64,000 nt of DNA, taken from the IMG/VR virus record IMGVR_UViG_3300045988_167063, one strand, 5' to 3'. The notes under the pieces were generated by a model that was given only the letters and a program-made list of their open reading frames with translations, was not told the DNA's origin and searched no databases. Origin of the DNA: a virus. Shown here in pieces: positions 8,583 to 47,618 of the stretch. The position numbers and the translations under genes were made by a program. How positions within the stretch are numbered: position 1 is the stretch's first letter; the number at the start of each line of letters is the position of its first letter.

Positions 8583-8937
8583 CAATTATGTTATCATATA
8601 AGTTTTTTATCTTATATTTCTTATAGTTGTATTTCCTATAAGTTCGGCGTACCTTTTCATCTAATAAATTTATTTATATAAAAATGACAAGTTTATTTTA
8701 TTTTTTTGCGTTCCAAAATACATATACTTCTTCACTTATTATCATTTATTACTACTAATTATTTATTAGATGCCGAGAACTCTTGGCAAAATTATATTCT
8801 ATAAAAATAGTTTCATTTGCTACGCTCTGCGTGTGACTATTCTTTTAAAAATAGCCTTCCACTCGGATTGACATTTCAGTTTTTCCGTTTCTTTCTCGGT
8901 TCGATTATATATCACTATATAAAAGGGCGAAGTTTTC
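8583..8937 (-). mobile_element. group-I-like intron, ORF-less (355 nt)
   Basis: Separates two in-phase terL exons and has an in-frame stop shortly after the 5' junction. The proposed junctions are GGU| and ...GAUAACAUAAUUG|. It shares conserved blocks (CCAAGAGU, GAACUUAU, GAUAAAA..CUUAUAUGAUAACA) with the other two intervening sequences. Confidence 0.6.
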
Positions 8938-9918: not shown

Positions 9919-10204
9919 CAATTTTGTTATCGTATAGGCTCTTTATCCTATACTTCTTATACTGTACTAATTTTCGTATAAGTTCAGAGTACATTTTCAT
10001 ACATAAATACAGAGTATGTGGACACTCTTGGTGATATTATATTCTTCCATTTCAAAAGTTTCAATCACTACTCGTTACAATACTATTAATTTTTACATTA
10101 AATAGTTATCTCGGTGTTGTACTTAAAATTAGTGTAGTTTCACCGATTTTGCCCAATTTGCTTTATAACTATCTATAATTCATTATAAAGGAGCATTATT
10201 ATTT
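9919..10204 (-). mobile_element. group-I-like intron, ORF-less (286 nt)
   Basis: Interrupts the Walker A codons. The 5' exon ends in U (AGU|), followed directly by AAAUAA (a stop). The intron ends ...CCUAUACGAUAACAAAAUUG|. It belongs to the same sequence family as 8583-8937 and 15073-15962. Confidence 0.6.
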
Positions 10205-15962: not shown

Positions 15963-17772
15963 AGCCATTAGTCCTATCTTGTAAATCCGTTCCAATACAA
16001 TTCACAGCCACAATATTCTCACTAAAAGGAAAATATTTTTGCATCTCTTTTGAGTAAGTATTTTTTAAATAACAAATATTATTTGGACTGTTTTGAGGTG
16101 ACCTTATACCACATAAATATTCTCCGTCATTAAATCTTGTAGTATAACATTGAATAGTTCCCTGCTCTTGTTCAAAGCAAGGGTCTTTAGTCCAATCCTC
16201 GCCAACTGCATATAACAGTAAAGCATAGGGGTTTCCACACATTGTCAAATTATCTGCATTGACAGTTATTTTGCCTTTACGCAATTTTTCAACATAAGCA
16301 AAAATAATTTTTCGCTTTTCAGTTCTAAACCACTTACTATTTGCAAAATCTTTATTTTGATTATATAAATCTGCCATCATTTCATAATGATTTATTTCAT
16401 TTGCATTTAATCTTAAAAACTTTTCAAACTCATCGTTATCTTGCTTTAACTTTTCAACATACGCTACACTATATTGAGCAAGTTCTTTAATTTCATCTTT
16501 ACTACAAGGCAATGAATTAACCATTTGATAACTCATTTGTTGAACATTTCCGAGTTTACTTTTATGGTCTGTTTTAACGATACCAAAAATGCTGTTGTCA
16601 GCCTTTATTCTATCACACCAATATTTATAAGGGTTATCCCCCATAAGCTCTGTAAACTTTTTCCATTTAATCGCATTGTCTGTTGTAATAACTTTAATAT
16701 TTTTTGCTAAATGTTTCACGCCAAACATATCTTCAATTTCAAAAGTTTCATAATCAACATTGTTTTCAATACACCAATCTTTTAAAAATTGTTGTAAATT
16801 AGTTCTAAATCCACACATTTTAAAAAAATGATTTCTTAACAACATCATTCCGTTGACATATTTAGGCATTATAGAAGTTTCAACTAACCCCATACCATCC
16901 CATAAAGTATTTTTTAGATTAACATTTTCTTTATGTACGACACATTTTTTAGTTGGTACTCGTATTTTTTTAAATACTCTTTTAGGCTTTTTACCTTGAC
17001 TTAAAGCTTTTTGTCTATTAATTTCAGTTTTTTCTGTATCAATAACTTTTTTCTCAACAAAATACTCTTCAGCTCTAACAATATTTGCCATTGTTTGAAA
17101 ATAACTATCTTGGTCTTTTAAAATTAAAATATCCTCAACAGGAATATGAATGTTCCCTACAATAGTGCTTGTAGTTAAAGGGGCATAAGCAGACATTTCA
17201 ACAATTTTTGCCTTTTTTTTATCCATTTTGTTCCCCAAACCCATAGTAAGCCATTCGTATGCTGTTTTATAATACTTTTCGTTAATAAAGATAGATTGCC
17301 CGACTTTAGCTTTTGAGGGCGTTCTAAAGAGCATTTTATAATGAATTGTTTGTGTCTTTTTTATTGCTCCGTTCTTATCTCTTGTCACATAATCAATAGA
17401 AACACCATTTTGATAATATTCATCTCTTATTTCTTCCATACTCTTTTTTATAAATTTATCTTTATTCTCGTGTACTGTATTTAAAATTTCATTTAATCGT
17501 TCTAATGATTTTTCATCTGCTTTTTCAATAAGCGTTTCTATCTGTTGTACTTTTTCTTCATAAGACTTTGAGCCAAAGTCAAATTCAAGACAAACAATAT
17601 CTCTTGTAGACTCACCTTTGTAAACATTAAGACCTTTATTTATAATATAATTACTAAACAATGAATTATTAAACATTGCGTCAGTATAATCAAGCCTATC
17701 CCTTACTCCGAGATTATATTCATAAAGCGTTCCTGCCTTAATATTTTTAATTTTTATTCCAAACTCGGACAA
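15963..17772 (-). CDS. YonO/RdRP-like two-barrel RNA polymerase, exon 1 of 2
   Basis: Ends ...CGIRSPQNSPNNICYL-(about 40 aa)-IVAVNCIGTDLQDRTNG. This resembles the R-x-P-x-x-H-P-G-D-I strand that precedes the DxDGD loop in RdRP/QDE-1/YonO-type enzymes. 1810 + 974 nt gives 928 codons. Confidence 0.55.
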
Positions 17773-18056: not shown

Positions 18057-18160
18057 TTCGTTCCACACGATTTCGTTATTCTCCTTTCGTGTTATAGATT
18101 ACTTTTATGCTTTGATATTGAAATTTGTAAGCACAAAAGTAAATTTTCAATCTTTTCTTA

Positions 18161-18189
18161 ATTATACCATATTTCATTGTAAAAGTCAA
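18161..18189 (-). promoter_or_regulatory. sigma-A-type promoter for the minus-strand block
   Basis: On the minus strand: AAAAAAACAC-TTGACT-17 nt-TGgTATAAT. This is the same consensus as the plus-strand promoter family. Confidence 0.6.
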
Positions 18190-18194
18190 GTGTT

Positions 18195-18225
18195 TTTTTA
18201 CTTTACCACTTTTTTACTTTACCAC
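18195..18225. repeat. tandem direct repeat TTTTTACTTTACCAC x2
   Basis: Copies at 18195-18209 and 18211-18225. They sit immediately upstream of the -35 of the minus-strand promoter, where they read GTGGTAAAGTAAAAA on that strand. Confidence 0.8.
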
Positions 18226-18272
18226 TTTATTTTTTATATATTTATATATACTTTATAATATAATATAATACT

Positions 18273-18294
18273 TATATATATATATATATATATA
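18273..18294. repeat. (TA)11 microsatellite
   Basis: An uninterrupted TA dinucleotide run in the core of the 18.1-18.4 kb palindromic region. Confidence 0.95.
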
Positions 18295-18330
18295 TTATAT
18301 TTATATTAAATAATAATAATTAATATAATA

Positions 18331-18413
18331 ATATAGACAAGGAATGATACCAAATCCTGAAAAATAATGCAAATTTCCATTATTTTAATATGTTTTGTCA
18401 ACGATAAAAGGTA
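18331..18413. repeat. about 83-bp element, copy A (related to the 28.0-28.2 kb palindrome arms)
   Basis: ATATAGACAAGG..GATACCAAATCCTGAAAA..AAATTTCCATTAT..TGTTTTGTCAACGATAA aligns with the reverse complement of 28021-28100 and with 28131-28212. A weaker inverted partner lies at about 18095-18180. Confidence 0.6.
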
Positions 18414-18816
18414 CTTATTTTAAAGAGGCACTATAAAAATCAATAATGAAATAATATATAATTTACATCTTTTTAAAGAAATCTTTGGGAAATTATCGGC
18501 TTTTCGTAAGAAAAGCTTTAATCGAAAAAGTTAAGACACGATAGTGGCTTAATTTTTTTGTCAAAAGTTAAGGAGCGTAGCGACTTAACTTGCGACAGCC
18601 TTGTGAAATCTTATGAGGAATATTTATTTTTAATATTTATAAATTAAATTTTATATTATATAATAAAATATATAATAAATATATTAATATATAAATTATA
18701 ATATAATAAGATAATCTAATAAATAATATAAATAAAAACATTTTAAACATATTCTATTAACTTGATATGTAATATGATACAGTTAAATTTCAATCACAAT
18801 TTTTTTAAAAAAGTTC

Positions 18817-18845
18817 TTGACATTTAGATAAAACTATGGTATAAT
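18817..18845 (+). promoter_or_regulatory. sigma-A-type promoter
   Basis: TTGACA (18817-22), 17-nt spacer, TGgTATAAT (-10 at 18840-45), with an A-rich upstream tract. Confidence 0.65.
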
Positions 18846-18864
18846 TAAGAAAATCGACAAAGAG

Positions 18865-27924: not shown

Positions 27925-27926
27925 TT

Positions 27927-27957
27927 ATAAGTGCCTTTGTTGGCACTTATTTTTTTA
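27927..27957 (+). terminator. rho-independent terminator
   Basis: ATAAGTGCC (27927-35) pairs with GGCACTTAT (27942-50), followed by T7. Confidence 0.8.
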
Positions 27958-28022
27958 TTTTATAGATAGTTCAACTTTGAACAGCACTCAATTACATATA
28001 ATTTCCACCTTTGACCTCCGTA

Positions 28023-28209
28023 CCTATCGTTGAAAAAACATACTCAAATAACATAAATTCAACGCTACTTTCAGTTTTTGATACCAAACCTTGTCTATAT
28101 TATATATATTATATAATTTAATCCTGCCACCAGTATGACACGCTTTGGTATCAAATCCGAAAACTAAAGCTAAATTTTCATTATCTGAAACAAATTTTCA
28201 ACGATAGCA
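28023..28209. repeat. about 190-bp imperfect palindrome with a TA-rich core
   Basis: Outer arms CTATCGTTGAAAA (28024-36) and TTTTCAACGATAG (28196-208) are perfect complements. Inner arms TTGATACCAAA (28078-88) and TTTGGTATCAA (28144-54) are also perfect complements. The centre is TATATTATATATATTATATAA. Confidence 0.85.
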
Positions 28210-28337
28210 AGTCCTTAATATAAGGGGTAATTACTTTTTAGGAGTGGCTAAATATAGTAAAAAATCGGAAAAATGAAAGAAAATGTTGAAAATAATGGAA
28301 ATTGGGAATAGAGTTGCGAGTGTTGAATAGCCGAGCG

Positions 28338-28354
28338 TGTGAATAAAAATCACA
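28338..28354. promoter_or_regulatory. palindromic site TGTGA-N7-TCACA (copy 1 of 4)
   Basis: TGTGAataaaaaTCACA in non-coding DNA. Confidence 0.5.
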
Positions 28355-28659
28355 AGGGGTTGTGAATTTGAGAAACACCCCCGTTAATAGACACTTTTAT
28401 TATTTTTGTCTATTATCTTTTAAACTTTCAGCGATTCAAGCGGTAAGCGGTTAAAATCATTTAAAATCTTGTAAAAAAATGATATATAAATAATATTATA
28501 CAATGTTTTTATAAGCGGTTGAAAAAATCAAGCATTTATTAAATTGTATACTTTTTTTTGAAGATTTTTTTGTGTATTTTTAGTATACAGTGCTTTCAGG
28601 TAATCGCGTAAAGTCCAAAAAGTGTACTATACAATCAACCTATACGAATGCTTATCATT

Positions 28660-29100
28660 ATAGCCTTAATCTATATCAATATTATATCATTACTTATATA
28701 TACTATATATCAATATATATATATATACTCTTATATATTATAGTATCTTTTAGTATAATATAACATACTCTTATTATATACCATCATATCAATATCACAT
28801 ATACAATTTTAAAAATCAATAGTACAATTTTATACACTATATATCATATTATATATAACTATATCTTTATTGATATAGTACAATTATATACACTATAATA
28901 TATATAATAATCTTAATATATAATACTTCAGTATATAGTATATTGTAATATATTATATAAGATATAATAATATATCAATATCAATTTAAAATATTAAATA
29001 TTAAAATAAAATTTAATTATTAAAAATATTGCCTATAAACCTATATAAAGCCGTTTTAATATAAAATAATGATATTATATTATTAAATATTAAAAAGTGT
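28660..29100. repeat. TA-rich low-complexity tract with internal repeats
   Basis: Almost pure A/T over several hundred bp. It contains an (AT)7 run (28713-27) and a 23-nt repeat ATAGTACAATT(T/A)TATACACTATA at 28819-41 and 28875-97. Confidence 0.8.
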
Positions 29101-29160
29101 TTATATAAGCGTCAGAGAGCCTGACTTTAATGATTTAGCGTATTAAAGTGGGCAGGCAAT

Positions 29161-29188
29161 AAAAAAAAGCCTTGCATTATACAAGGCT
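29161..29188 (-). terminator. rho-independent terminator of the reverse cassette
   Basis: On the minus strand AGCCUUG/CAAGGCU is followed by U8. It lies 10 nt after the stop of 29198-29425. Confidence 0.8.
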
Positions 29189-29197
29189 TTAAAAATT

Positions 29198-29947: not shown

Positions 29948-30367
29948 CATATTTCTTGAAGTTTATGCAACTTGTATACTTCAAGCCGATTTATAGCCGG
30001 CTTTTTGTGCATATTGCATAAATTCAGAGCTTTTGGTATGTTTTATAGTACAATTTAATTAAAAGTGTATTATAACTAACTTCGTGTGCTTTAGTCAAGT
30101 AAAGTTTGCCACTTTTGAGGGTGTAGGAATATAGATATATTACTAACACTAAAAACGGCTTATATCGGCTTTCAGAGCCTTATAATACACTTTGATATAA
30201 AATGCACATTATTTTAGCGTTCATATTATTACACTTTGTATATATCAATTTTACTATATGTAATATAACTAATTGTATAGTTTATGTTTACATATTGTAT
30301 AATAGACTTTTGTTTATTATTATATCATTGTCTATTTATGAATAAATTGTAAAATTTAAAATAATTG

Positions 30368-30396
30368 TTGACTTTTAAACGGCTTTATGTTATTAT
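30368..30396 (+). promoter_or_regulatory. sigma-A-type promoter with no ORF downstream
   Basis: TTGACT, 17-nt spacer, TGtTATTAT. The next about 340 nt have no plausible ORF. Confidence 0.5.
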
Positions 30397-30625
30397 ACAA
30401 AGTGAATTATAACGACTTTTAGTGCTTTATAATTGTAACAATTTTGTAATAACCTATTAAAATTATAGGTATTGTAATTTTATGCAGGGTATCACGCTTT
30501 ACCGTGATAAAGTGTTAAAGTCCTATTAAATTAGTAGGATATTATATATTATTTAATTGATAAAAATATATCAATCTTATTTAAAATTTTATCAATCTTA
30601 AATGTGAATAATTATATAATTTTTA

Positions 30626-30642
30626 TGTGAATTTTAGTCACA
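30626..30642. promoter_or_regulatory. palindromic site TGTGA-N7-TCACA (copy 2 of 4)
   Basis: TGTGAattttagTCACA in non-coding DNA. Confidence 0.5.
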
Positions 30643-30737
30643 AAGTCAAAGTGTAGTGAACGCTTGTGAGGGTAATGGTGAGATTGAAATTTGCCCCGAG
30701 GAAATTATGAACAGTTTGTAAACAAATCAAAAAAGTC

Positions 30738-30766
30738 TTGACGAGTGCAAACAAGTATGTTATATT
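30738..30766 (+). promoter_or_regulatory. sigma-A-type promoter
   Basis: TTGACG, 17-nt spacer, TGtTATATT, with an A-tract upstream. Confidence 0.6.
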
Positions 30767-30822
30767 GTAATCAAGCTAAACGGCAAAAGCCGAAAATAAA
30801 TGTAGTATAGGGAGGTTTAATT

Positions 30823-35963: not shown

Positions 35964-35992
35964 TTGACTTTTGCGTTCATATTTGGTAGAAT
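35964..35992 (+). promoter_or_regulatory. sigma-A-type promoter driving a second short ORF-less unit
   Basis: TTGACT, 17-nt spacer, TGgTAGAAT. Confidence 0.5.
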
Positions 35993-36141
35993 AAAGACAA
36001 CAAATGAATATGATAAAATAGGCTGAAGTGAGAAGCGTGGCTGAAGAGTCAAAATGCTTTGCCTCGGTCAATCATCTAAGCAACAATTTTTTAAATATGA
36101 ATAAATTGTTAATAAATTGTAAATGCAAATAATATTCAATT

Positions 36142-36158
36142 TGTGACTTTTATTCACA
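36142..36158. promoter_or_regulatory. palindromic site TGTGA-N7-TCACA (copy 4 of 4)
   Basis: TGTGActtttatTCACA. Confidence 0.55.
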
Positions 36159-36168
36159 AAAACACACC

Positions 36169-36265
36169 AAACCTACCAACATTGTAGACTTTAGTGTGGT
36201 AAAGCATTAAAGTTCTTAAAACCTACCAAGTTAATATGTTTTTAAGAATGACTCAAGGTGGTAAA
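36169..36265. repeat. paired direct repeats AAACCTACCAA x2 and GTGGTAAA x2
   Basis: AAACCTACCAA at 36169-79 and 36219-29. GTGGTAAAG at 36196-204 and GTGGTAAA at 36258-65. GTGGTAAAG is the reverse complement of the core of the 18195-18225 repeat. Confidence 0.6.
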
Positions 36266-36422
36266 AGGGTAATCGGGCGAATAAAAATTCCCCCACGGAA
36301 AATTTGGTTCAAAGAAAATTATATCCAATTTTCTGCACACAGTTTTAAATATTTGTGTGCTAAAAGTTGGAATTAAAAGGAAATATTATATTTAAGTATA
36401 TATTATTAAAAGGAGATAAATT

Positions 36423-38235: not shown

Positions 38236-38267
38236 AAGGTCAACAAATAAAGAAAGAGGTCGTTATT

Positions 38268-39152
38268 ATGACAAACACAGAGTTAATAAAGATATTTGAA
38301 CAGACAATAAGGCAAAAACCATTCTCTTTAAGTGAGAATACAATTAAGACTTATTTATATCATATTGATAGTCTTTTAAAATTCCTCGACAATAAAAACA
38401 TTGCCGAGATTATAACAAAAGACATTAAAAAATATTTGTTTAATATCAGTTCTGTGGGTGTTTCAGATACAACCTATAATATTTCATTGGCAGGGTTTAA
38501 ATGCTTGTATAAAGCTTTGAGATACAATCCTATGACAGAAGATATTATTCAAAATAATCCAGCTATTGATATTCCAAGTATCAAAAACGCAAAACAAAAG
38601 AAAAAGACACCTTTAAATGAAATTGAAAAACAGGCATTATTGCATAGTTGTAAAAATGTAAGAGATTATGCTATTCTTGTAACTTATTTGAATGTTGGCT
38701 TGCGTGTTCACGAACTTGTTAATTTAACACTTGAACAATATCTTAATCGTGGCGAAAATGGCGAAATTAAACTTGTTGTTAATAAAGGCTCTTATGATGA
38801 TGAATATATTTTTATCAACGAACAGACCGAAAAGGCAATAGATAATTATATTAAGAATTTAAGAAAAGATTGTGGCTGTAAATATCTTTTTGTATCAAAT
38901 CAAGGCAACCAAATGACACCAAGTTGTATTTCTAAAACTATTAAGACTTTGGCAAGAAGAAGTGGTAAGTTTTCAGAAGATAGAATTTCACAATTATCAA
39001 ATCATATTATGCGACACACTATGGCAACTGATTTAGTTAATGAAAATGTGCCGATTGATGTTGTTGCAATGGTATTAAGACATCATAGTCTTGCAACAGT
39101 TATGACTTATGCAAAGACGGATAAAGAAAGAGTTATGGAGGCAGTAAGATGA
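38268..39152 (+). CDS. int: tyrosine site-specific recombinase (XerC/D-like or phage integrase family)
   Basis: 294 aa. It has an N-terminal SAM-like core-binding region. The catalytic signature is GLRVHEL (Arg), HIMRHTMAT (H-x-x-R), LRHHS and TYAKT (Tyr). Confidence 0.8.
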   Translation: MTNTELIKIFEQTIRQKPFSLSENTIKTYLYHIDSLLKFLDNKNIAEIITKDIKKYLFNISSVGVSDTTYNISLAGFKCLYKALRYNPMTEDIIQNNPAIDIPSIKNAKQKKKTPLNEIEKQALLHSCKNVRDYAILVTYLNVGLRVHELVNLTLEQYLNRGENGEIKLVVNKGSYDDEYIFINEQTEKAIDNYIKNLRKDCGCKYLFVSNQGNQMTPSCISKTIKTLARRSGKFSEDRISQLSNHIMRHTMATDLVNENVPIDVVAMVLRHHSLATVMTYAKTDKERVMEAVR

Positions 39153-39310
39153 CAGATATTCAAGAGGAAAAAGTTGACGAAATTAAAAGAAGTCTTGATA
39201 GGGTTTATTTTTACACAGACGCTGGGGATTGTGTAGTAATTACGGGCAGTAAAAATGGTGATTTAGTCACTTATGATATATATAGTAACGGTTGGGCTAC
39301 GAAAATATGA
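39149..39310 (+). CDS. hypothetical small protein (53 aa)
   Basis: Hand-found ORF with ATGA overlap with the recombinase stop. Confidence 0.4.
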   Translation: MTDIQEEKVDEIKRSLDRVYFYTDAGDCVVITGSKNGDLVTYDIYSNGWATKI

Positions 39311-39321
39311 GGAGATAAAAT

Positions 39322-39585
39322 ATGAATATAAATATAATAAGACCTTCAGTTGAAATAAAATCTATTAAACTTAAAGATGTTAAAGCAGGAGATGTGTTTT
39401 ATATCCAAGGGGCAGATGATGTTCCTTTTTTAAAAACAAAACTTCGTATTCCTGATTTTACTAATAGATATTCTGATGAATATTTGATTGGTGCAATGAA
39501 TTTGACAAACGGTAATATAATTGATTTTACTCAAGATACATATGTAAGACTTTATAAAAAAACTAAATTAACAATAGAGGTTTGA
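39322..39585 (+). CDS. hypothetical protein
   Basis: 87 aa with a GAGGAG RBS. Confidence 0.55.
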   Translation: MNINIIRPSVEIKSIKLKDVKAGDVFYIQGADDVPFLKTKLRIPDFTNRYSDEYLIGAMNLTNGNIIDFTQDTYVRLYKKTKLTIEV

Positions 39586-39586
39586 T

Positions 39587-39853
39587 ATGGAACAATATTA
39601 TATGACAGAAACAAAAATGGGCGATTTTAGTCTACACAAAATTAAGCGTTTATATGGCATTTTAAAGGCTTTTAAAATCTATGATACTTATTTCCGTATT
39701 GAAAGTAAAAATGGAAAATTCACGCTCTCAACCTGCTCATTTCTTATTTTAACAAGTTTGTGTGGACTTAATGAAGTAGTAACAATTAAATTGTATGGAA
39801 ATGATAAAGAATTATTGGAAAATACAAAAAGACAACTCGAAAGGATAGCATAA
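39587..39853 (+). CDS. hypothetical protein
   Basis: 88 aa with a GAGG RBS. Confidence 0.55.
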   Translation: MEQYYMTETKMGDFSLHKIKRLYGILKAFKIYDTYFRIESKNGKFTLSTCSFLILTSLCGLNEVVTIKLYGNDKELLENTKRQLERIA

Positions 39854-40029
39854 TGACAGTTGAAGAATTAGTTTATAAAAAAGACCTATATAATAGTGTT
39901 GTATTTATATATGATAACCATAAGGGTTATTATATCTATATAGGTAAAGCTAAAGATATTCCACAATGTATTTTAGAACGCATTGCAGATGAAAATTCTT
40001 ATAAGTCAAGACATTTTAATATTTTGTAA
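39853..40029 (+). CDS. hypothetical small protein (58 aa)
   Basis: Hand-found ORF MTVEELVYKKDLYNSVVFIYDNHKGYYIYIGKAKDIPQCILERIADENSYKSRHFNIL, with TAATG coupling. Confidence 0.4.
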   Translation: MTVEELVYKKDLYNSVVFIYDNHKGYYIYIGKAKDIPQCILERIADENSYKSRHFNIL

Positions 40030-40038
40030 AAAAAGTTC

Positions 40039-40067
40039 TTGACTTTTGCTTTATTTTGTGGTATAAT
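40039..40067 (+). promoter_or_regulatory. sigma-A-type promoter of the non-coding RNA locus
   Basis: AAAAAAGTTC-TTGACT (40039-44), 17-nt spacer, TGgTATAAT (-10 at 40062-67). Confidence 0.65.
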
Positions 40068-40073
40068 ACAGAA

Positions 40074-41051
40074 GAAGTTAAGAGTTGAGCAATTAGAGAT
40101 TATACTTACTTGTTTGTTTTCATAATGTATACCTCTTTCAATTAAAATAATTTACCTCCAAAAAAAATATATAAAACAGGTAGGTGTAATCTTTAATTGC
40201 TCAACCAAATATAGAGAGTTAGTATAATAGTAGTACAACAGACTTTGAATCTGTCGGAAAAGGGGCAGAACCTTTACTCTCTGCCAATCCCTAACGGCGA
40301 GGGTTATAATGTGTCCGTACATAAGATGAAATCAAATTCCCTAAATGGAGAGTAATCGTGTGTCGTTTTAGGTTTTGCGACTATAAATAATAATTACTTT
40401 GTATAGTCTTTTAGGGTGACTCCAAAGAGTGAGATAATATCAAGAGTGGGTGTGTAAGTTTTGGTAGTTCTTATAGTCAAAATACTACTAAGCACAATAT
40501 GATAATAGTGAGGTTCTAATTAAATATTATTATTTAATATTCCGACTATTTGATAGTGCTTTTATGTGGCAAAAGATATTAAGGAATTTAGCCACGGATT
40601 TTTAATTCAAAATCTAAAATTCCATTAGACAGTTAGCCATTTAAGTGGCAGTGTGTTAAGCACAGAAGATTTTAGGCAAGTTAGTCAAGCCTTCGGTTAA
40701 GAAAGACTTAATTGAAAACGGACTACACGCAGTCTGAGCGTGACAAAATCAAGTGTGGTGACTTGAAAAGAAAGATAAGAAAAGCCAAATACTAATTATT
40801 ACCAAAATAAGTTAGGACTTTTTGTATTGAGTGGGTTATTGACCTATCCATAGTTTTTCTAATGTTGTAATTTTACGATAAAAGAGTGTGCATTATTTTA
40901 TACGAATTTTACAACACCGACTTTGCATTGTTTTTTTCTTTGCTCTGACATACGGCAAATTAAATATAGTATGTTATTTATGGCAGATATAGTCCAAGTA
41001 AGGCATCTATTAACTAAATAGAAAATAAGAGTTCAATTCTCTTTATCTGCC
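40074..41051 (+). ncRNA. candidate large structured non-coding RNA / tRNA-like precursor (class unknown)
   Basis: About 1 kb with no ORF of 60 aa or more on either strand and no RBS-preceded small ORF, transcribed from a consensus promoter. It has a 32-bp uninterrupted helix (40084-40115 with 40174-40205) containing 4 G-U pairs that would be C-A mismatches on the opposite strand. It also has cloverleaf-like modules at 40213-40286 and 40982-41051 and several further local helices. Confidence 0.5.
40213..40286 (+). tRNA. tRNA-like gene, anticodon UUG (Gln), non-canonical D/T loops, encoded CCA
   Basis: Hand fold. Acceptor AGAGAGT/ACTCTCT (7 bp). D stem GTAT/GTAC. Anticodon stem ACAGA/TCTGT with loop CTTTGAA. 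T stem AAAGG/CCTTT with loop GGCAGAA. Then GCCA at the 3' end. It lacks the usual D-loop GG and T-loop TTC. Confidence 0.4.
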
Positions 41052-41079
41052 TCTATTGAATAATAATAGGAGATGAATT

Positions 41080-41256
41080 ATGCGAAAGTATAAAAGAAAA
41101 ATTGCTCACTATAAAATGGAGCGAGAAGGTATTAAACACATCAATAAAACAGTAAGAAAGCGAAATGGTGAGGTTATTCCGAGTTTTTTCTCTCAATTTT
41201 GGAAAACTTATGTGACTAAACCATTAGCACCAAAAGTATCATTAAGGAAAGGTTGA
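41080..41256 (+). CDS. hypothetical small basic protein (58 aa)
   Basis: Hand-found ORF MRKYKRKIAHYKMEREGIKHINKTVRKRNGEVIPSFFSQFWKTYVTKPLAPKVSLRKG. TAGGAGA RBS. Confidence 0.45.
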   Translation: MRKYKRKIAHYKMEREGIKHINKTVRKRNGEVIPSFFSQFWKTYVTKPLAPKVSLRKG

Positions 41257-41263
41257 TAAAAGT

Positions 41264-41608
41264 ATGAAGAAATATGTAACATACACATCTGATGATGGTA
41301 AGTTTAGTCATTCAGATGTCAAGAAAGTAGAACAGTATGAGGCAAAGGTAAAGGCTGAAAAGGAAAGAAAAGCCGAACTTAAAGCAACAAAAGAAGCAAG
41401 AAAAGCAGAAGTTGATGAGGCTATAAATAAGGCTTATGAACTTTTTAAGCAGTTTATGAAAGATTATGGCACTTATGAAACCAAATACACCACAGTAAGC
41501 AATTATAAAGGTGAAAAATTTGATGATTTTTTTAAATTTTATAAAATGTTAAATCCGTCATTTTCCGATGCTTTGTCATTTCTTGACGGTTCGTTTTACA
41601 AGGATTAA
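41264..41608 (+). CDS. hypothetical protein
   Basis: 114 aa with a central Lys/Glu-rich helix. Confidence 0.55.
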   Translation: MKKYVTYTSDDGKFSHSDVKKVEQYEAKVKAEKERKAELKATKEARKAEVDEAINKAYELFKQFMKDYGTYETKYTTVSNYKGEKFDDFFKFYKMLNPSFSDALSFLDGSFYKD

Positions 41609-41862: not shown

Positions 41863-42885
41863 ATGGCAAGAGAAATTAGAAGAACAGACTCACAAGGCTT
41901 GATTGTAGGTGTGCTTTCTGAATTAGCACTTGAAATTATTGACGATGAAATTAAGCTTTCAAATGGTAAAACAAAAAAGTGTAAGAGAATTGTAGCAAAA
42001 GACAAGAAGTTTAATAGTGCAATTAGTATTGAAACAGCAAATGGCACTTTTGAATTTCCTGCACCGAGTTTTTGTTCAAGCATCACACGAGAGGGTGAAG
42101 AAAGTAAGTCTTTTAAGTCTTGGGAAACAGTGGTCAATGAGTATAAGGATAAATTGCATTATGGCGAAAATGCCGACAGAGTTGCATTGACAGTTAGTTA
42201 TGCCCCTCAAGTTAGTTATAATAGACAAAAAGATGATGTGTTAGTCTATGCAAATTCCTTTAATACAAGATATATTACAAGAGTTAGTGAAGAAACTGAA
42301 AGTTCAACAGATATGTCAACAGAATGTATTATCAAGGCAATTAGACCTGAAATGAGAAATGAAGAAGAAACAGGTCGAAAGATTGTCGATATTATGACAG
42401 TTGGTTATGGTGATGCTAATACTCCTTTGATTGGTATTATTTCATCACTTATTATTCCTGAAAATCTTGTTGATGATTTTGAAAATACTTTTGAAATCGG
42501 TCAAACTTGTAAGCTTGACTTTGAACTGAAAAAGGTAAGGGTTGGTGGCAGTCAAACACAGCAGTCACACGGCTTTGGTAGAAAAGCAAAGGTTAATGAA
42601 GGCTTTTCTGTAACAGAAAGAGTAGTTATTGGTGGTGACGAACCTTATAATGATAGTGATATGGAAACCACACAAGAACTTGCTTATACAAAGACTGAAA
42701 TTAAGTCGCTCCTCAAGGATTTTGAAATTGTTAAAAAGGCAAAGCTTGAAAAGGGGAAAGAAAATGCCTCAAATTCAAATAGTAAGCCGAGAGGTTTAGG
42801 TCATAGAGCAACAGTTGAAACACCGACTGCAAGTGACAGTCCTTTTGATATTGATGACGAAGATGACGAAAATCCATTTATGTAA
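41863..42885 (+). CDS. single-stranded-DNA-binding-like protein (putative)
   Basis: 340 aa. The acidic C-terminal tip DSPFDIDDEDDENPFM resembles the SSB protein-interaction tail (DDDIPF type). It sits next to a recombination ATPase. AAGGAGA RBS. Confidence 0.45.
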   Translation: MAREIRRTDSQGLIVGVLSELALEIIDDEIKLSNGKTKKCKRIVAKDKKFNSAISIETANGTFEFPAPSFCSSITREGEESKSFKSWETVVNEYKDKLHYGENADRVALTVSYAPQVSYNRQKDDVLVYANSFNTRYITRVSEETESSTDMSTECIIKAIRPEMRNEEETGRKIVDIMTVGYGDANTPLIGIISSLIIPENLVDDFENTFEIGQTCKLDFELKKVRVGGSQTQQSHGFGRKAKVNEGFSVTERVVIGGDEPYNDSDMETTQELAYTKTEIKSLLKDFEIVKKAKLEKGKENASNSNSKPRGLGHRATVETPTASDSPFDIDDEDDENPFM

Positions 42886-47318: not shown

Positions 47319-47618
47319 ATGATATATTATAATGTTGTATTGGGTGTATATAATAAAAGAAAGCACACACAGAAAAACGAAAATGATGCTATCGTTACAG
47401 GAAAATATCCATTTGAAACAGTAGCAAAAGCTATGAGAGTATTTAATCTTTTAGAGGAAGAAGTTATAAAAGAAAATAAATTCTACAATAGAAAAATAAT
47501 GATAATGATTAGTTGGGTTGACAATAGACGAAGGGATATATATTATAAATATTTATCAAGGCGTGGTTATAAATACGAAGTAGTAGATGGACAGAAATTT
47601 ATTTGCAAAATATATTGA
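47319..47618 (+). CDS. hypothetical protein
   Basis: 99 aa. No motif was recognised. Confidence 0.45.
   Translation: MIYYNVVLGVYNKRKHTQKNENDAIVTGKYPFETVAKAMRVFNLLEEEVIKENKFYNRKIMIMISWVDNRRRDIYYKYLSRRGYKYEVVDGQKFICKIY

Follow-up and report, generated by a model that had tools for sequence, protein, structure and literature searches.

Stable RNAs known as species 1 and 2 (band C/D) are encoded in the transfer RNA (tRNA) region of phage T4 and are released by the tRNA-processing enzymes; in Escherichia coli, thrU-tyrU-glyT-thrT-tufB is a mixed operon of tRNA and messenger RNA (mRNA); and in Staphylococcus aureus the Rsa small RNAs (sRNAs) with a UCCC motif, together with hairpins of RNAIII, pair with Shine-Dalgarno (SD) regions and recruit RNase III. 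ROOL (RF03087) and GOLLD (RF01998) are large ornate RNAs of Firmicutes and their phages that often lie beside tRNAs (PMC5737381; PMC12286853), and Staphylococcus phage K has abundantly transcribed long non-coding RNAs (lncRNAs), defined by RNA-seq, beside its tRNA genes (PMC9241854). Here we analyse a locus of about 1 kb at positions 40039–41056 of a 64,000-nucleotide (nt) stretch, hereafter the window, from IMG/VR virus record IMGVR_UViG_3300045988_167063. A first-pass annotation had singled this locus out as promoter-driven, lacking any credible open reading frame (ORF) and a candidate large structured RNA. In our reading, which we consider probable although well short of certain, it is the untranslated front of an early phage operon descended from a tRNA gene array, and so an early mixed operon of tRNA, non-coding RNA and mRNA. 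The spacers and leader of this operon became, or always were, functional structured RNAs.

Neither Rfam nor GenBank phages contain the locus, which is undescribed although its kind is familiar: phage tRNA clusters with stable RNAs, mixed operons and the phage K lncRNAs. With clusters of the T4 type it shares a promoter-driven noncoding operon in a large phage, with tRNAs and structured non-tRNA RNAs on one strand, in which the tRNAs would serve as processing punctuation; it differs in its spacers of ~700 nt, in having one atypical tRNA and a tRNA-like element, and in that we infer its processing. As in operons of the thrU-tufB type, tRNA structures would stand upstream of coding genes on one transcript and tRNA processing would set the 5' end of the mRNA; here, however, the last 'tRNA' has no anticodon loop and seems to be kept as a structure, and ~1 kb of other RNA is present. 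In common with Rsa sRNAs and RNAIII it has unpaired loop motifs of the CCUC type that are complementary to GGAGG and AGAGG sites, in a lineage of hosts that make strong use of SD sites, whereas its targets are only predicted, the leader carrying its motif belongs to a tRNA operon and a perfect duplex of 32 base pairs (bp) is unusual for such sRNAs. ROOL and GOLLD resemble it in phage context, tRNA adjacency and a length of several hundred nt, but the locus has neither a covariance-model match nor supported long-range architecture, and it shows modular insertions and deletions (indels) and a narrow distribution. The phage K lncRNAs are likewise non-coding RNAs beside tRNA genes of a large Firmicute phage; they have no sequence relationship to the window locus, which is defined by comparative sequence only.

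Synteny with tRNA arrays and the two cloverleaves

The window is a tailed-phage genome (~29% G+C) encoding a portal protein, a DnaB-like helicase, a primase, RecJ, a Pol III alpha-type polymerase, a Sak4/AAA_24 protein and a XerD-like recombinase, and the locus is flanked by a recombinase block upstream (38268–40029) and a replication module downstream (small ORFs from 41080, YorF-family protein at 41863). Homologues of the YorF-like protein gave ~60 loci for comparison (labelled L with a number). Close relatives (L001, L002 and L019–L022; 89–97% protein identity) carry the same locus, with three modules of 200, 133 and 20 nt that are independently present or absent. At the same slot, behind an orthologous promoter and between the same integrase and YorF-like genes, the sister clade (L005–L009 and L023–L027; YorF-like protein 63–65% identical) carries 3–6 tRNAs in the order Gly(UCC)-(Met)-Leu(UAA)-Thr(UGU)-Ile(UAU)-Gln(UUG), with spacers of 85–460 nt. 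Positions 40804–40948 of the window are homologous to the Ile-to-Gln spacer of the sister clade (65–68% identity; nhmmer E 8e-9). Given this synteny with true tRNA arrays, the spacer homology and a tRNA-Gln of its own, we therefore regard the window locus as a remodelled tRNA operon. The first-pass annotation had allowed that the locus might prove to be an ordinary tRNA cluster and nothing else; the sister slot is indeed a tRNA array, but the window locus is not an ordinary one, and its spacers are constrained. The L001 copy of the region around the first cloverleaf aligns at 67% with the tRNA-Gln region of L005. In L003 (3218–3881) the array is collapsed to one tRNA behind a leader of ~560 nt, and this tRNA appears to be a chimera from recombination across 27 nt shared by tRNA-Gly and tRNA-Gln.

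Neither blastn nor nhmmer found homology between window positions 40290–40800 and the conserved leader and spacer modules of the sister clade. The YorF-like protein search gave no lineage between 89% and 65% identity, and k-mer scans of IMG/VR for distant copies of the window-type spacer and hairpin gave only the contig of L001. As the spacer is confined to a narrow clade, its antiquity as a family is not supported. The nearest cultured relatives are phages of Enterocloster bolteae (~100 kb, ~30% YorF identity) that have no tRNAs at the locus; a genome scan matched one contig of a 'Bacilli bacterium' metagenome-assembled genome.

At gathering thresholds, Rfam 15 returned only two tRNA matches in the whole window; at E values up to 10, positions 39900–41200 gave these two together with sub-threshold matches to microRNA, small nucleolar RNA and Plastid-ycf2 models, which arise because a long hairpin or an antisense tRNA triggers such models. 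ROOL, GOLLD, raiA, OLE, transfer-messenger RNA (tmRNA), RNase P RNA and group I and II introns had no Rfam 15 match, and ARAGORN found no tmRNA; the membership of ROOL, GOLLD, raiA, tmRNA, RNase P or an intron class that had been entertained at first pass is accordingly dropped. Rfam scans of the window locus, L001, L003, L004 and L005 (gathering thresholds and E up to 10) likewise gave only tRNAs. GenBank phages held no near or distant DNA match to the window locus or to the L046 leader, and matched the L005 array only through its tRNAs.

The first cloverleaf, predicted at first pass with an encoded CCA, is matched over 40213–40283 by the Rfam tRNA model at 51.8 bits (gathering score 29). In seven relatives it keeps U33, the UUG anticodon, G73, a weak 1–72 pair and the encoded CCA, with a 7-nt anticodon loop (CUUUGAA or CUUUGAC) whose U33 and UUG never change; only position 38 and the variable loop differ among them. 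ARAGORN misses this tRNA because its T-loop is GGCAGAA. The canonical T54-Psi55-C56-R57-A58 and D-loop G18-G19 contacts are absent and the elbow is non-canonical, because of this T-loop and a D-loop (AAUAGUA) with a single G. The first cloverleaf behaves like a tRNA-Gln under selection, with a putative role in decoding. Among the arrays of L005–L009, L023–L027, L038, L044–L046 and L050, nearly all tRNAs have U34, with Met(CAU) and Leu(CAA) as exceptions, and therefore read A-ending codons.

At the far end of the locus an acceptor and T-arm module had been proposed; this was borne out, and the element proved to be a whole cloverleaf (Rfam match 40983–41051, 44.7 bits, above the tRNA gathering threshold). 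Its anticodon arm consists of a 6-bp stem and a 5-nt loop, AAC(U/C)A. Position 33 is A, positions 32 and 38 covary from U-A to C-G as Watson-Crick pairs, and the 'anticodon' reads ACU in the window but ACC in six relatives; the element thus has neither a 7-nt anticodon loop with U33 nor a constant anticodon. It ends 15 nt before the SD of the gene at 41080, directly ahead of that SD and ATG, and in our own comparison its acceptor stem resembles that of tRNA-Gly(UCC) of L005. ARAGORN, advised at first pass as a check, finds this second cloverleaf as Ser(ACU) while missing the first, and assigns near-identical copies in relatives (L001, L002 and L021) to Gly(ACC). Such disagreement between tRNA finders is an annotation pitfall, one element here being missed and the other given two amino-acid identities. 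The second cloverleaf makes most sense as a tRNA-like structure that has been retained for its shape. Cleavage of such a structure on both sides by RNase P and RNase Z would set the 5' end of the downstream mRNA, and the element clearly exemplifies a cloverleaf that persists without an anticodon loop, its probable role being that of a processing signal.

Table 1. Features of the locus and of the gene start that follows it (window coordinates)
Feature	Positions	Strand	Description
Promoter, sigma-A type, extended -10	40039–40067	+	TTGACT-17-TGgTATAAT; 11/12 matches; upstream TG
Leader hairpin	40084–40205	+	32-bp stem with 4 G-U; 58-nt A/U-rich loop; ACCUCU and ACCUCC
tRNA-Gln(UUG)	40213–40286	+	RF00005; encoded CCA at 40284–40286; G73; A1-U72 pair
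Spacer segment 1	40287–40488	+	Local hairpins CCCU/AGGG (40289–40303) and GACUAUA/UAUAGUC (40379–40408); 2–7% variable sites
Optional hairpin module, 133 nt	40489–40621	+	Present in the window, L002, L019 and L021; absent from L001, L020 and L022
Spacer segment 2	40622–40800	+	Best-conserved part of the spacer; five local hairpins
Segment 2 hairpin	40636–40649	+	GCCA/UGGC
Segment 2 hairpin	40652–40664	+	UGUG/CACA
Segment 2 hairpin	40692–40716	+	UUCGGUUAAG/CUUAAUUGAA
Segment 2 hairpin	40726–40742	+	CACGC/GCGUG
Segment 2 hairpin	40749–40766	+	UCAAGU/ACUUGA
Spacer segment 3	40801–40981	+	Hairpin 40864–40915; helix 40946–40953/40969–40976; least conserved part of the spacer
tRNA-like element	40982–41053	+	Full cloverleaf; canonical T-loop UUCAAUU; no CCA
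Downstream gene start	41068–41256	+	SD AGGAGA and 58-amino-acid ORF opening the replication-module genes (YorF-like, AAA_24/Sak4-like, DnaB-like)

RNA-level constraint and modularity of the spacer

Variable sites were counted per 100 nt among five close relatives. The promoter and hairpin (40000–40199) are the most conserved 200 nt of the neighbourhood, with 1–3% of sites variable; the fraction is 2.3% at 40400–40499, 2.6% at 40600–40699, 7% at both 40300–40399 and 40700–40799 and 13–20% at 40800–40999, compared with 8–15% in the flanking genes. In a substitution test, a local fold (pair span ≤120 nt) was computed from the window sequence alone and broken pairs were counted in relatives over 40290–40980; 0 were observed versus 3.65 expected in L001 (P 0.008), 0 versus 3.2 in L019 (P 0.005) and 7 versus 13.2 in L020 (P 0.015), the relatives being close (93–97% identical) and non-independent and the structure coming from one of the sequences compared. 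L020 further shows four double compensatory changes where 0.6 would be expected (P below 0.001), while the minus-strand fold gave no signal in the same test (P 0.57, 0.57, 0.9 and 0.05). By a formal count over seven sequences, five pairs have changed on both sides, versus 1.3 ± 0.9 after shuffling (1/500 reach 5) and 0–2 in slid controls. On these comparative grounds the spacer reads as a functional RNA, because parts of it are more conserved than the flanking genes, its plus-strand pairs are preserved and compensatory changes occur. The first-pass view of a promoter-sense, ORF-free RNA locus thus gained support from low variability and from pair-preserving and compensatory substitutions on the plus strand only.

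Several individual helices could be followed through the relatives. The GACTATA/TATAGTC helix recognized at first pass pairs 40379–40385 with 40402–40408, and its stem is invariant while its loop varies. A second helix suggested there, CGGACT/AGTCTG at 40719–40736, exists as sequence, but a compensatory A-U to U-A change in L002 (40727/40741) supports the overlapping helix 40726–40730/40738–40742. The helix 40864–40867/40912–40915 has exchanged G-C for A-U in L020 (40867/40912); 40946–40953/40969–40976 is found in C-G, U-G and U-A states (40949/40973) with three further single compatible changes; and 40692–40701/40707–40716 has two compatible changes in L021. The 1-nt indels of relatives in segment 2 fall in loops, and a T-rich motif in segment 3, TTTTCTTTG, is invariant across the window and sister clades.

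Beside the 133-nt module, an insert of 200 nt is found right after the tRNA CCA, at the 5' edge of segment 1, in L001, L020, L021 and L022; L021 thus has both large modules (133 + 200 nt), and L019 has an insert of 20 nt. Over 126 nt the 200-nt insert (L001 4368–4570) is 70% identical to the minus strand of window positions 8791–8910, in gene-sense orientation. In our reading of its sequence it looks like a portable terminator-promoter cassette, with a putative terminator (hairpin and T-run) and a -35/-10 pair. The members of this intergenic repeat family are window 8791–8910 (minus strand), 10036–10069 and 16730–16789 and L001 4368–4570.

This modularity bears on a rival proposal, which we think unlikely: that a single, globally folded ornate RNA of large size and new class, comparable to ROOL or GOLLD and acting as one particle, takes up the whole ~1 kb or the ~700 nt separating the cloverleaves. 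The size would fit, the element is in a phage and adjoins tRNAs, its structural constraint is on the plus strand and it is more conserved than neighbouring genes; the region between the tRNAs (40284–40985) folds to -162 kcal/mol on the plus strand versus -130 kcal/mol on the minus strand, and lncRNAs beside tRNAs have been reported in phage K (PMC9241854). However, z is only about -3 on either strand (-3.0 and -2.9), G+C is barely raised (31% versus a background of 29%) and no Rfam family matches at E up to 10. All helices with comparative support are local (span ≤120 nt), with no long-range helix among them, and the 133-, 200- and 20-nt modules come and go independently, so the single large RNA put forward at first pass is not supported by the comparison. 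The spacer is also limited to a narrow clade, the sister clade having real tRNAs in its place.

The same data speak to a decaying tRNA array, in which two degenerate pseudo-tRNAs and a functionless spacer are transcribed only through their position between a promoter and the replication genes. Both cloverleaves are defective (an odd T-loop in one, no anticodon loop in the other), sister clades carry 5–6 intact tRNAs, the spacer has large indels and 40800–41000 varies at 13–20% of sites, as decay would have it; but the hairpin and 40400–40700 vary at only 1–3% of sites, below coding DNA, substitutions are compensatory and pair-preserving, UUG and U33 of the tRNA-Gln are invariant, and the loop motif CCUCY (Y = C or U) recurs across clades. 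We consider mere decay quite improbable. Rfam (E up to 10) detected no extra decayed tRNAs in the spacer.

Two modules of the sister clade, the leader before tRNA-Gly (L005 3297–3500 = L007 2511–2715) and the Thr-to-Ile spacer (L005 4045–4340), have 92–100% column identity and are as conserved as the tRNAs, compared with only 61–69% for the Leu-to-Thr spacer. Their G+C is 36–45% versus 27%, they match no Rfam family and they are candidates for new structured RNAs.

With regard to coding capacity, no credible ORF is present in the locus: the longest has 56 amino acids and lies antisense to the tRNA, and the others have at most 36. Small ORFs were rejected, being of 56 amino acids or fewer, lacking ribosome-binding sites and having 1-nt and 133-nt indels in close relatives. 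A reading of the minus-strand loop as an SD with a mini-ORF (MKTNK in the window; a 12-amino-acid ORF in L005) was also rejected from the sequence, on spacing and an SD that is not conserved. The ~1 kb without an ORF noted at first pass therefore holds, but the tight packing of the rest of the genome does not; the locus is the longest ORF-free stretch of the window rather than the sole one, others measuring 430–840 nt. Further ORF-free regions of the window lie at 18098–18864, 27925–29197 and 29985–30822. At 18.1–18.9 kb, G+C is 18% and many A/T palindromes coincide with a switch of gene orientation and GC skew; this is a likely origin or region of divergent control. An imperfect inverted repeat of 52 nt at 28044–28188 adjoins a plus-strand CCUCC at 28015. 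Another promoter-driven ORF-free stretch, at 35964–36420, has TTGACTTTTGCGTTCATATTTGGTAGAAT followed by ~420 nt, and contains two copies of AACCUACCAA, complementary to GGUAGGU in the 3' arm of the locus hairpin; BLAST matched it to none of the loci compared, not even L001, which on collinearity would be expected to cover the region.

The leader hairpin and its CCUCY motif

Behind the promoter, two arms of 32 nt (40084–40115 and 40174–40205), separated by 58 nt, form an uninterrupted 32-bp helix on the plus strand (-42.8 kcal/mol, z -8.6). All four non-Watson-Crick pairs of the stem are G-U on that strand, whereas the minus-strand fold has four interior mismatches at these positions (-34.0 kcal/mol, z -4.75). 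The first-pass description of a promoter-sense-specific helix was thus exact in its arms and its strand, and in L020 a G-to-A change converts a U-G pair of the stem to U-A. This is the longest inverted repeat in 64 kb outside low-complexity A/T. The two loop motifs reported earlier are present, ACCTCT at 40131–40136 and ACCTCC at 40154–40159, both in the open loop; ACCTCY has four plus-strand occurrences in the 45-kb plus-strand gene region, of which the 58-nt loop holds two (Poisson P ~3e-6). RNase III prefers long duplexes, and from this preference the 122-nt leader hairpin is probably one of its substrates.

An inverted repeat of this kind might instead be a DNA element, either an origin or a XerD-like recombinase site, its RNA structure being incidental. 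Its place directly ahead of the replication module and close to an integrase-family gene (the XerD-like recombinase gene is 0.9 kb upstream of the 32-bp repeat), its A/T-rich 58-bp centre and iteron-like AAAGGT repeats in the same operon of the distant L046 would all be in keeping with this. On the other side, stem imperfections are all G-U on the plus strand in two clades with unrelated stem sequences, 40000–41100 contains no iterons and no direct or tandem repeats, and 18.1–18.9 kb is a better origin candidate (more A/T-rich, laden with repeats, at a switch of gene orientation). Xer-type sites are ~28–30 bp, unlike 32-bp arms that are 58 bp apart, and we regard a DNA element as very improbable. 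The repeats of L046 (1340–1470), about ten copies of AAAGGT(C/T)A between a 212-amino-acid ORF and tRNA-Gln(UUG) upstream of replication genes, are a possible replication origin inside a tRNA operon.

Much the same small chance attaches to a MITE-like origin, in which a miniature inverted-repeat mobile element would have inserted behind the promoter. It would account for terminal inverted repeats with a total of ~120 bp, for the presence of an analogous sister hairpin in L005, L006, L008 and L009 but not in L003 and L007, and for the 9-bp direct repeat GTCATTCAA that in our reading of the alignment flanks the sister hairpin. The window hairpin is, however, a single copy in 64 kb, and k-mer scanning of IMG/VR found it in one contig only; it is the most conserved stretch of its neighbourhood, stems are kept through G-U pairs on one strand, and the loop motif is common to hairpins with unrelated stem sequences.

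This loop motif, CCUCY, is found in or beside hairpins in the promoter-driven leaders of five divergent clades, with significant enrichment in each (P 3e-6 to 1e-2; 1e-4 to 1e-2 per leader in clades other than that of the window). The orthologous promoter of L005, L006, L008 and L009 is followed by a hairpin of 25+5 bp, unrelated in sequence to that of the window, with ACCUCCUUU in its loop; in L005 all three imperfect pairs are G-U on the plus strand (z -7.1 versus -4.7 on the minus strand). The well-conserved Thr-to-Ile spacer of the sister clade has a second hairpin with a 58-nt loop carrying UACCUCCUUUCC; this hairpin, the stem of which varies solely via G-U intermediates on the plus strand, is followed by UCCUCCUUUU. 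L038 and L044–L046, with 27–29% YorF identity, have a C-rich leader of 220–270 nt behind the promoter, with hairpin loops containing CCACCUCCAC, ACCUCA and GCCUCU, and in L038 ACCUCCAAACCUCU within a single loop; one leader stem shows an A-U versus G-C exchange between L044 and L046. CCUCY-loop hairpins end 4–8 nt before the first tRNA in the window and in these four loci, where the last leader hairpin precedes tRNA-Ile(UAU) by this distance. A CCUCC-bearing hairpin precedes tRNA-Ile(UAU) in two clades that are only ~28% identical in YorF. L004 139–605 has a family-type promoter (139–168), ~380 ORF-free nt ending in CCUCUAUACCUCC (451–464), a 27-bp terminator-like hairpin with a U-run (471–552) and, behind it, a second promoter; this region has the appearance of a free-standing sRNA gene that shares the motif pair of the window hairpin loop.

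CCUCY is invariant where the surrounding loop varies (in the sister and distant clades), and since it recurs while stem sequences differ, this hairpin-associated motif is a conserved feature of these leaders; the leader hairpin is probably a functional CCUCY-loop module and is the element of the locus most worth experiment. The motif is identical to the anti-SD core of 16S ribosomal RNA (rRNA), and the phage genes use GGAGG, AGAGG and GAGGT sites. Complementarity of the loop to phage translation-initiation regions averages -14.0 kcal/mol versus -10.7 ± 0.8 kcal/mol in shuffled loops, an SD complementarity that follows automatically from the motif. The translation-initiation region of the integrase (38240–38268), GAAAGAGGU, is a 9-nt complement of loop ACCUCUUUC. 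Specific targets were not retained, target prediction recovering only generic SD complementarity. The simplest mechanistic reading is that the CCUCY loop would pair with ribosome-binding regions, in the manner of the C-rich loops of Firmicute sRNAs.

Proposed transcription and processing, and significance

The consensus promoter that the first-pass annotation placed at the start of the locus is as described (Table 1). Its stringent motif, TTGAC-N-TGnTATAAT, has 13 copies in the window, including the locus promoter, with none between 40039 and 47615. Where sequence downstream of these family promoters was read, it usually has an SD and a start codon no more than a few tens of bases away, and the motif is therefore a genuine promoter type of the phage; the locus copy is unusual in the sequence that follows it. 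The transcript probably starts near 40074. No terminator-like site was found in 39500–41600 and the next family promoter is at 47615, so the replication genes are probably co-transcribed with the locus.

In the pathway that we propose, the host-type promoter at 40039 would give a transcript from near 40074 on which the 122-nt hairpin forms first; RNase III would cut its perfect 32-bp stem, and the open 58-nt loop would display two CCUCY motifs like the 3' tail of 16S rRNA (the anti-SD). The tRNA-Gln(UUG) with its encoded CCA would come 7 nt after the hairpin, followed by a spacer of ~700 nt expected to fold as a chain of local hairpins, then by the tRNA-like cloverleaf without an anticodon loop and the ribosome-binding site of the first replication-module gene. 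Cleavage at both cloverleaves by RNase P and RNase Z (or 3' exonucleases) would yield five products: the hairpin RNA, the tRNA, at least one stable spacer RNA, the tRNA-like piece and an mRNA with a defined 5' end. Pairing of the CCUCY loop of the hairpin RNA with SD regions such as AAAGAGGU or GGAGGU would then damp or time translation.

A number of points weigh against a remodelled tRNA operon that is processed in this way. Transcript ends and processing steps are inferred, putative internal promoters occur at 40281–40310 and 40945–40972, and in the four relatives with the 200-nt insert a terminator and promoter would split the unit into two transcripts. The broken elbow contacts make decoding by the tRNA-Gln, and even its recognition by RNase P, uncertain, no role can be assigned to the ~700-nt spacer, and the closeness of the relatives bears on the substitution test as stated above. 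The SD complementarity of the loop is no proof of pairing, and CCUCY has alternative readings. It could be a boxA-like antitermination signal of an untranslated operon, as CUCUUUCAAUUAAA resembles the E. coli rrn boxA, GCUCUUUAACAA; by eye, CCUCUUUCAAUUAAA in the window loop and AUCUUUAAUUG in the 3' arm of the hairpin also resemble the boxA consensus, and the leaders of L038 and L044–L046 keep CCUCY without the UUU-A tail of boxA. A C-rich site at which Rho loads and a remnant of a captured 16S-tRNA-Ile junction are further readings; the CCUCCUUU hairpins show only a short, suggestive resemblance to 16S helix 45 and its tail, with no small-subunit rRNA match in the Rfam scans.

A bolder proposal, taken jointly in all its parts, we put forward as doubtful. 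A group of ~90–110-kb phages, the nearest cultured relatives of which infect Enterocloster (Clostridia), would open its early tRNA/replication operon with a dedicated hairpin that copies the 16S 3' tail (CCUCC/CCUCU). Released by RNase III and RNase P, this hairpin would act in trans, as a repressor or decoy of the anti-SD type or by titrating factors that recognize the 16S 3' end; tRNA-processing enzymes would cut out the ~700-nt spacer as a stable RNA that is new and specific to the lineage; and the anticodon-less cloverleaf would be kept for no other purpose than to signal this excision.

A phage tRNA array can thus become a mostly non-tRNA noncoding operon under selection, which offers a concrete route to the large RNAs found beside phage tRNAs. 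The CCUCY-loop leader hairpin is a small cross-clade module that is open to experiment and, if it pairs with ribosome-binding sites, it would represent an RNA-based means by which phages time or bias translation.

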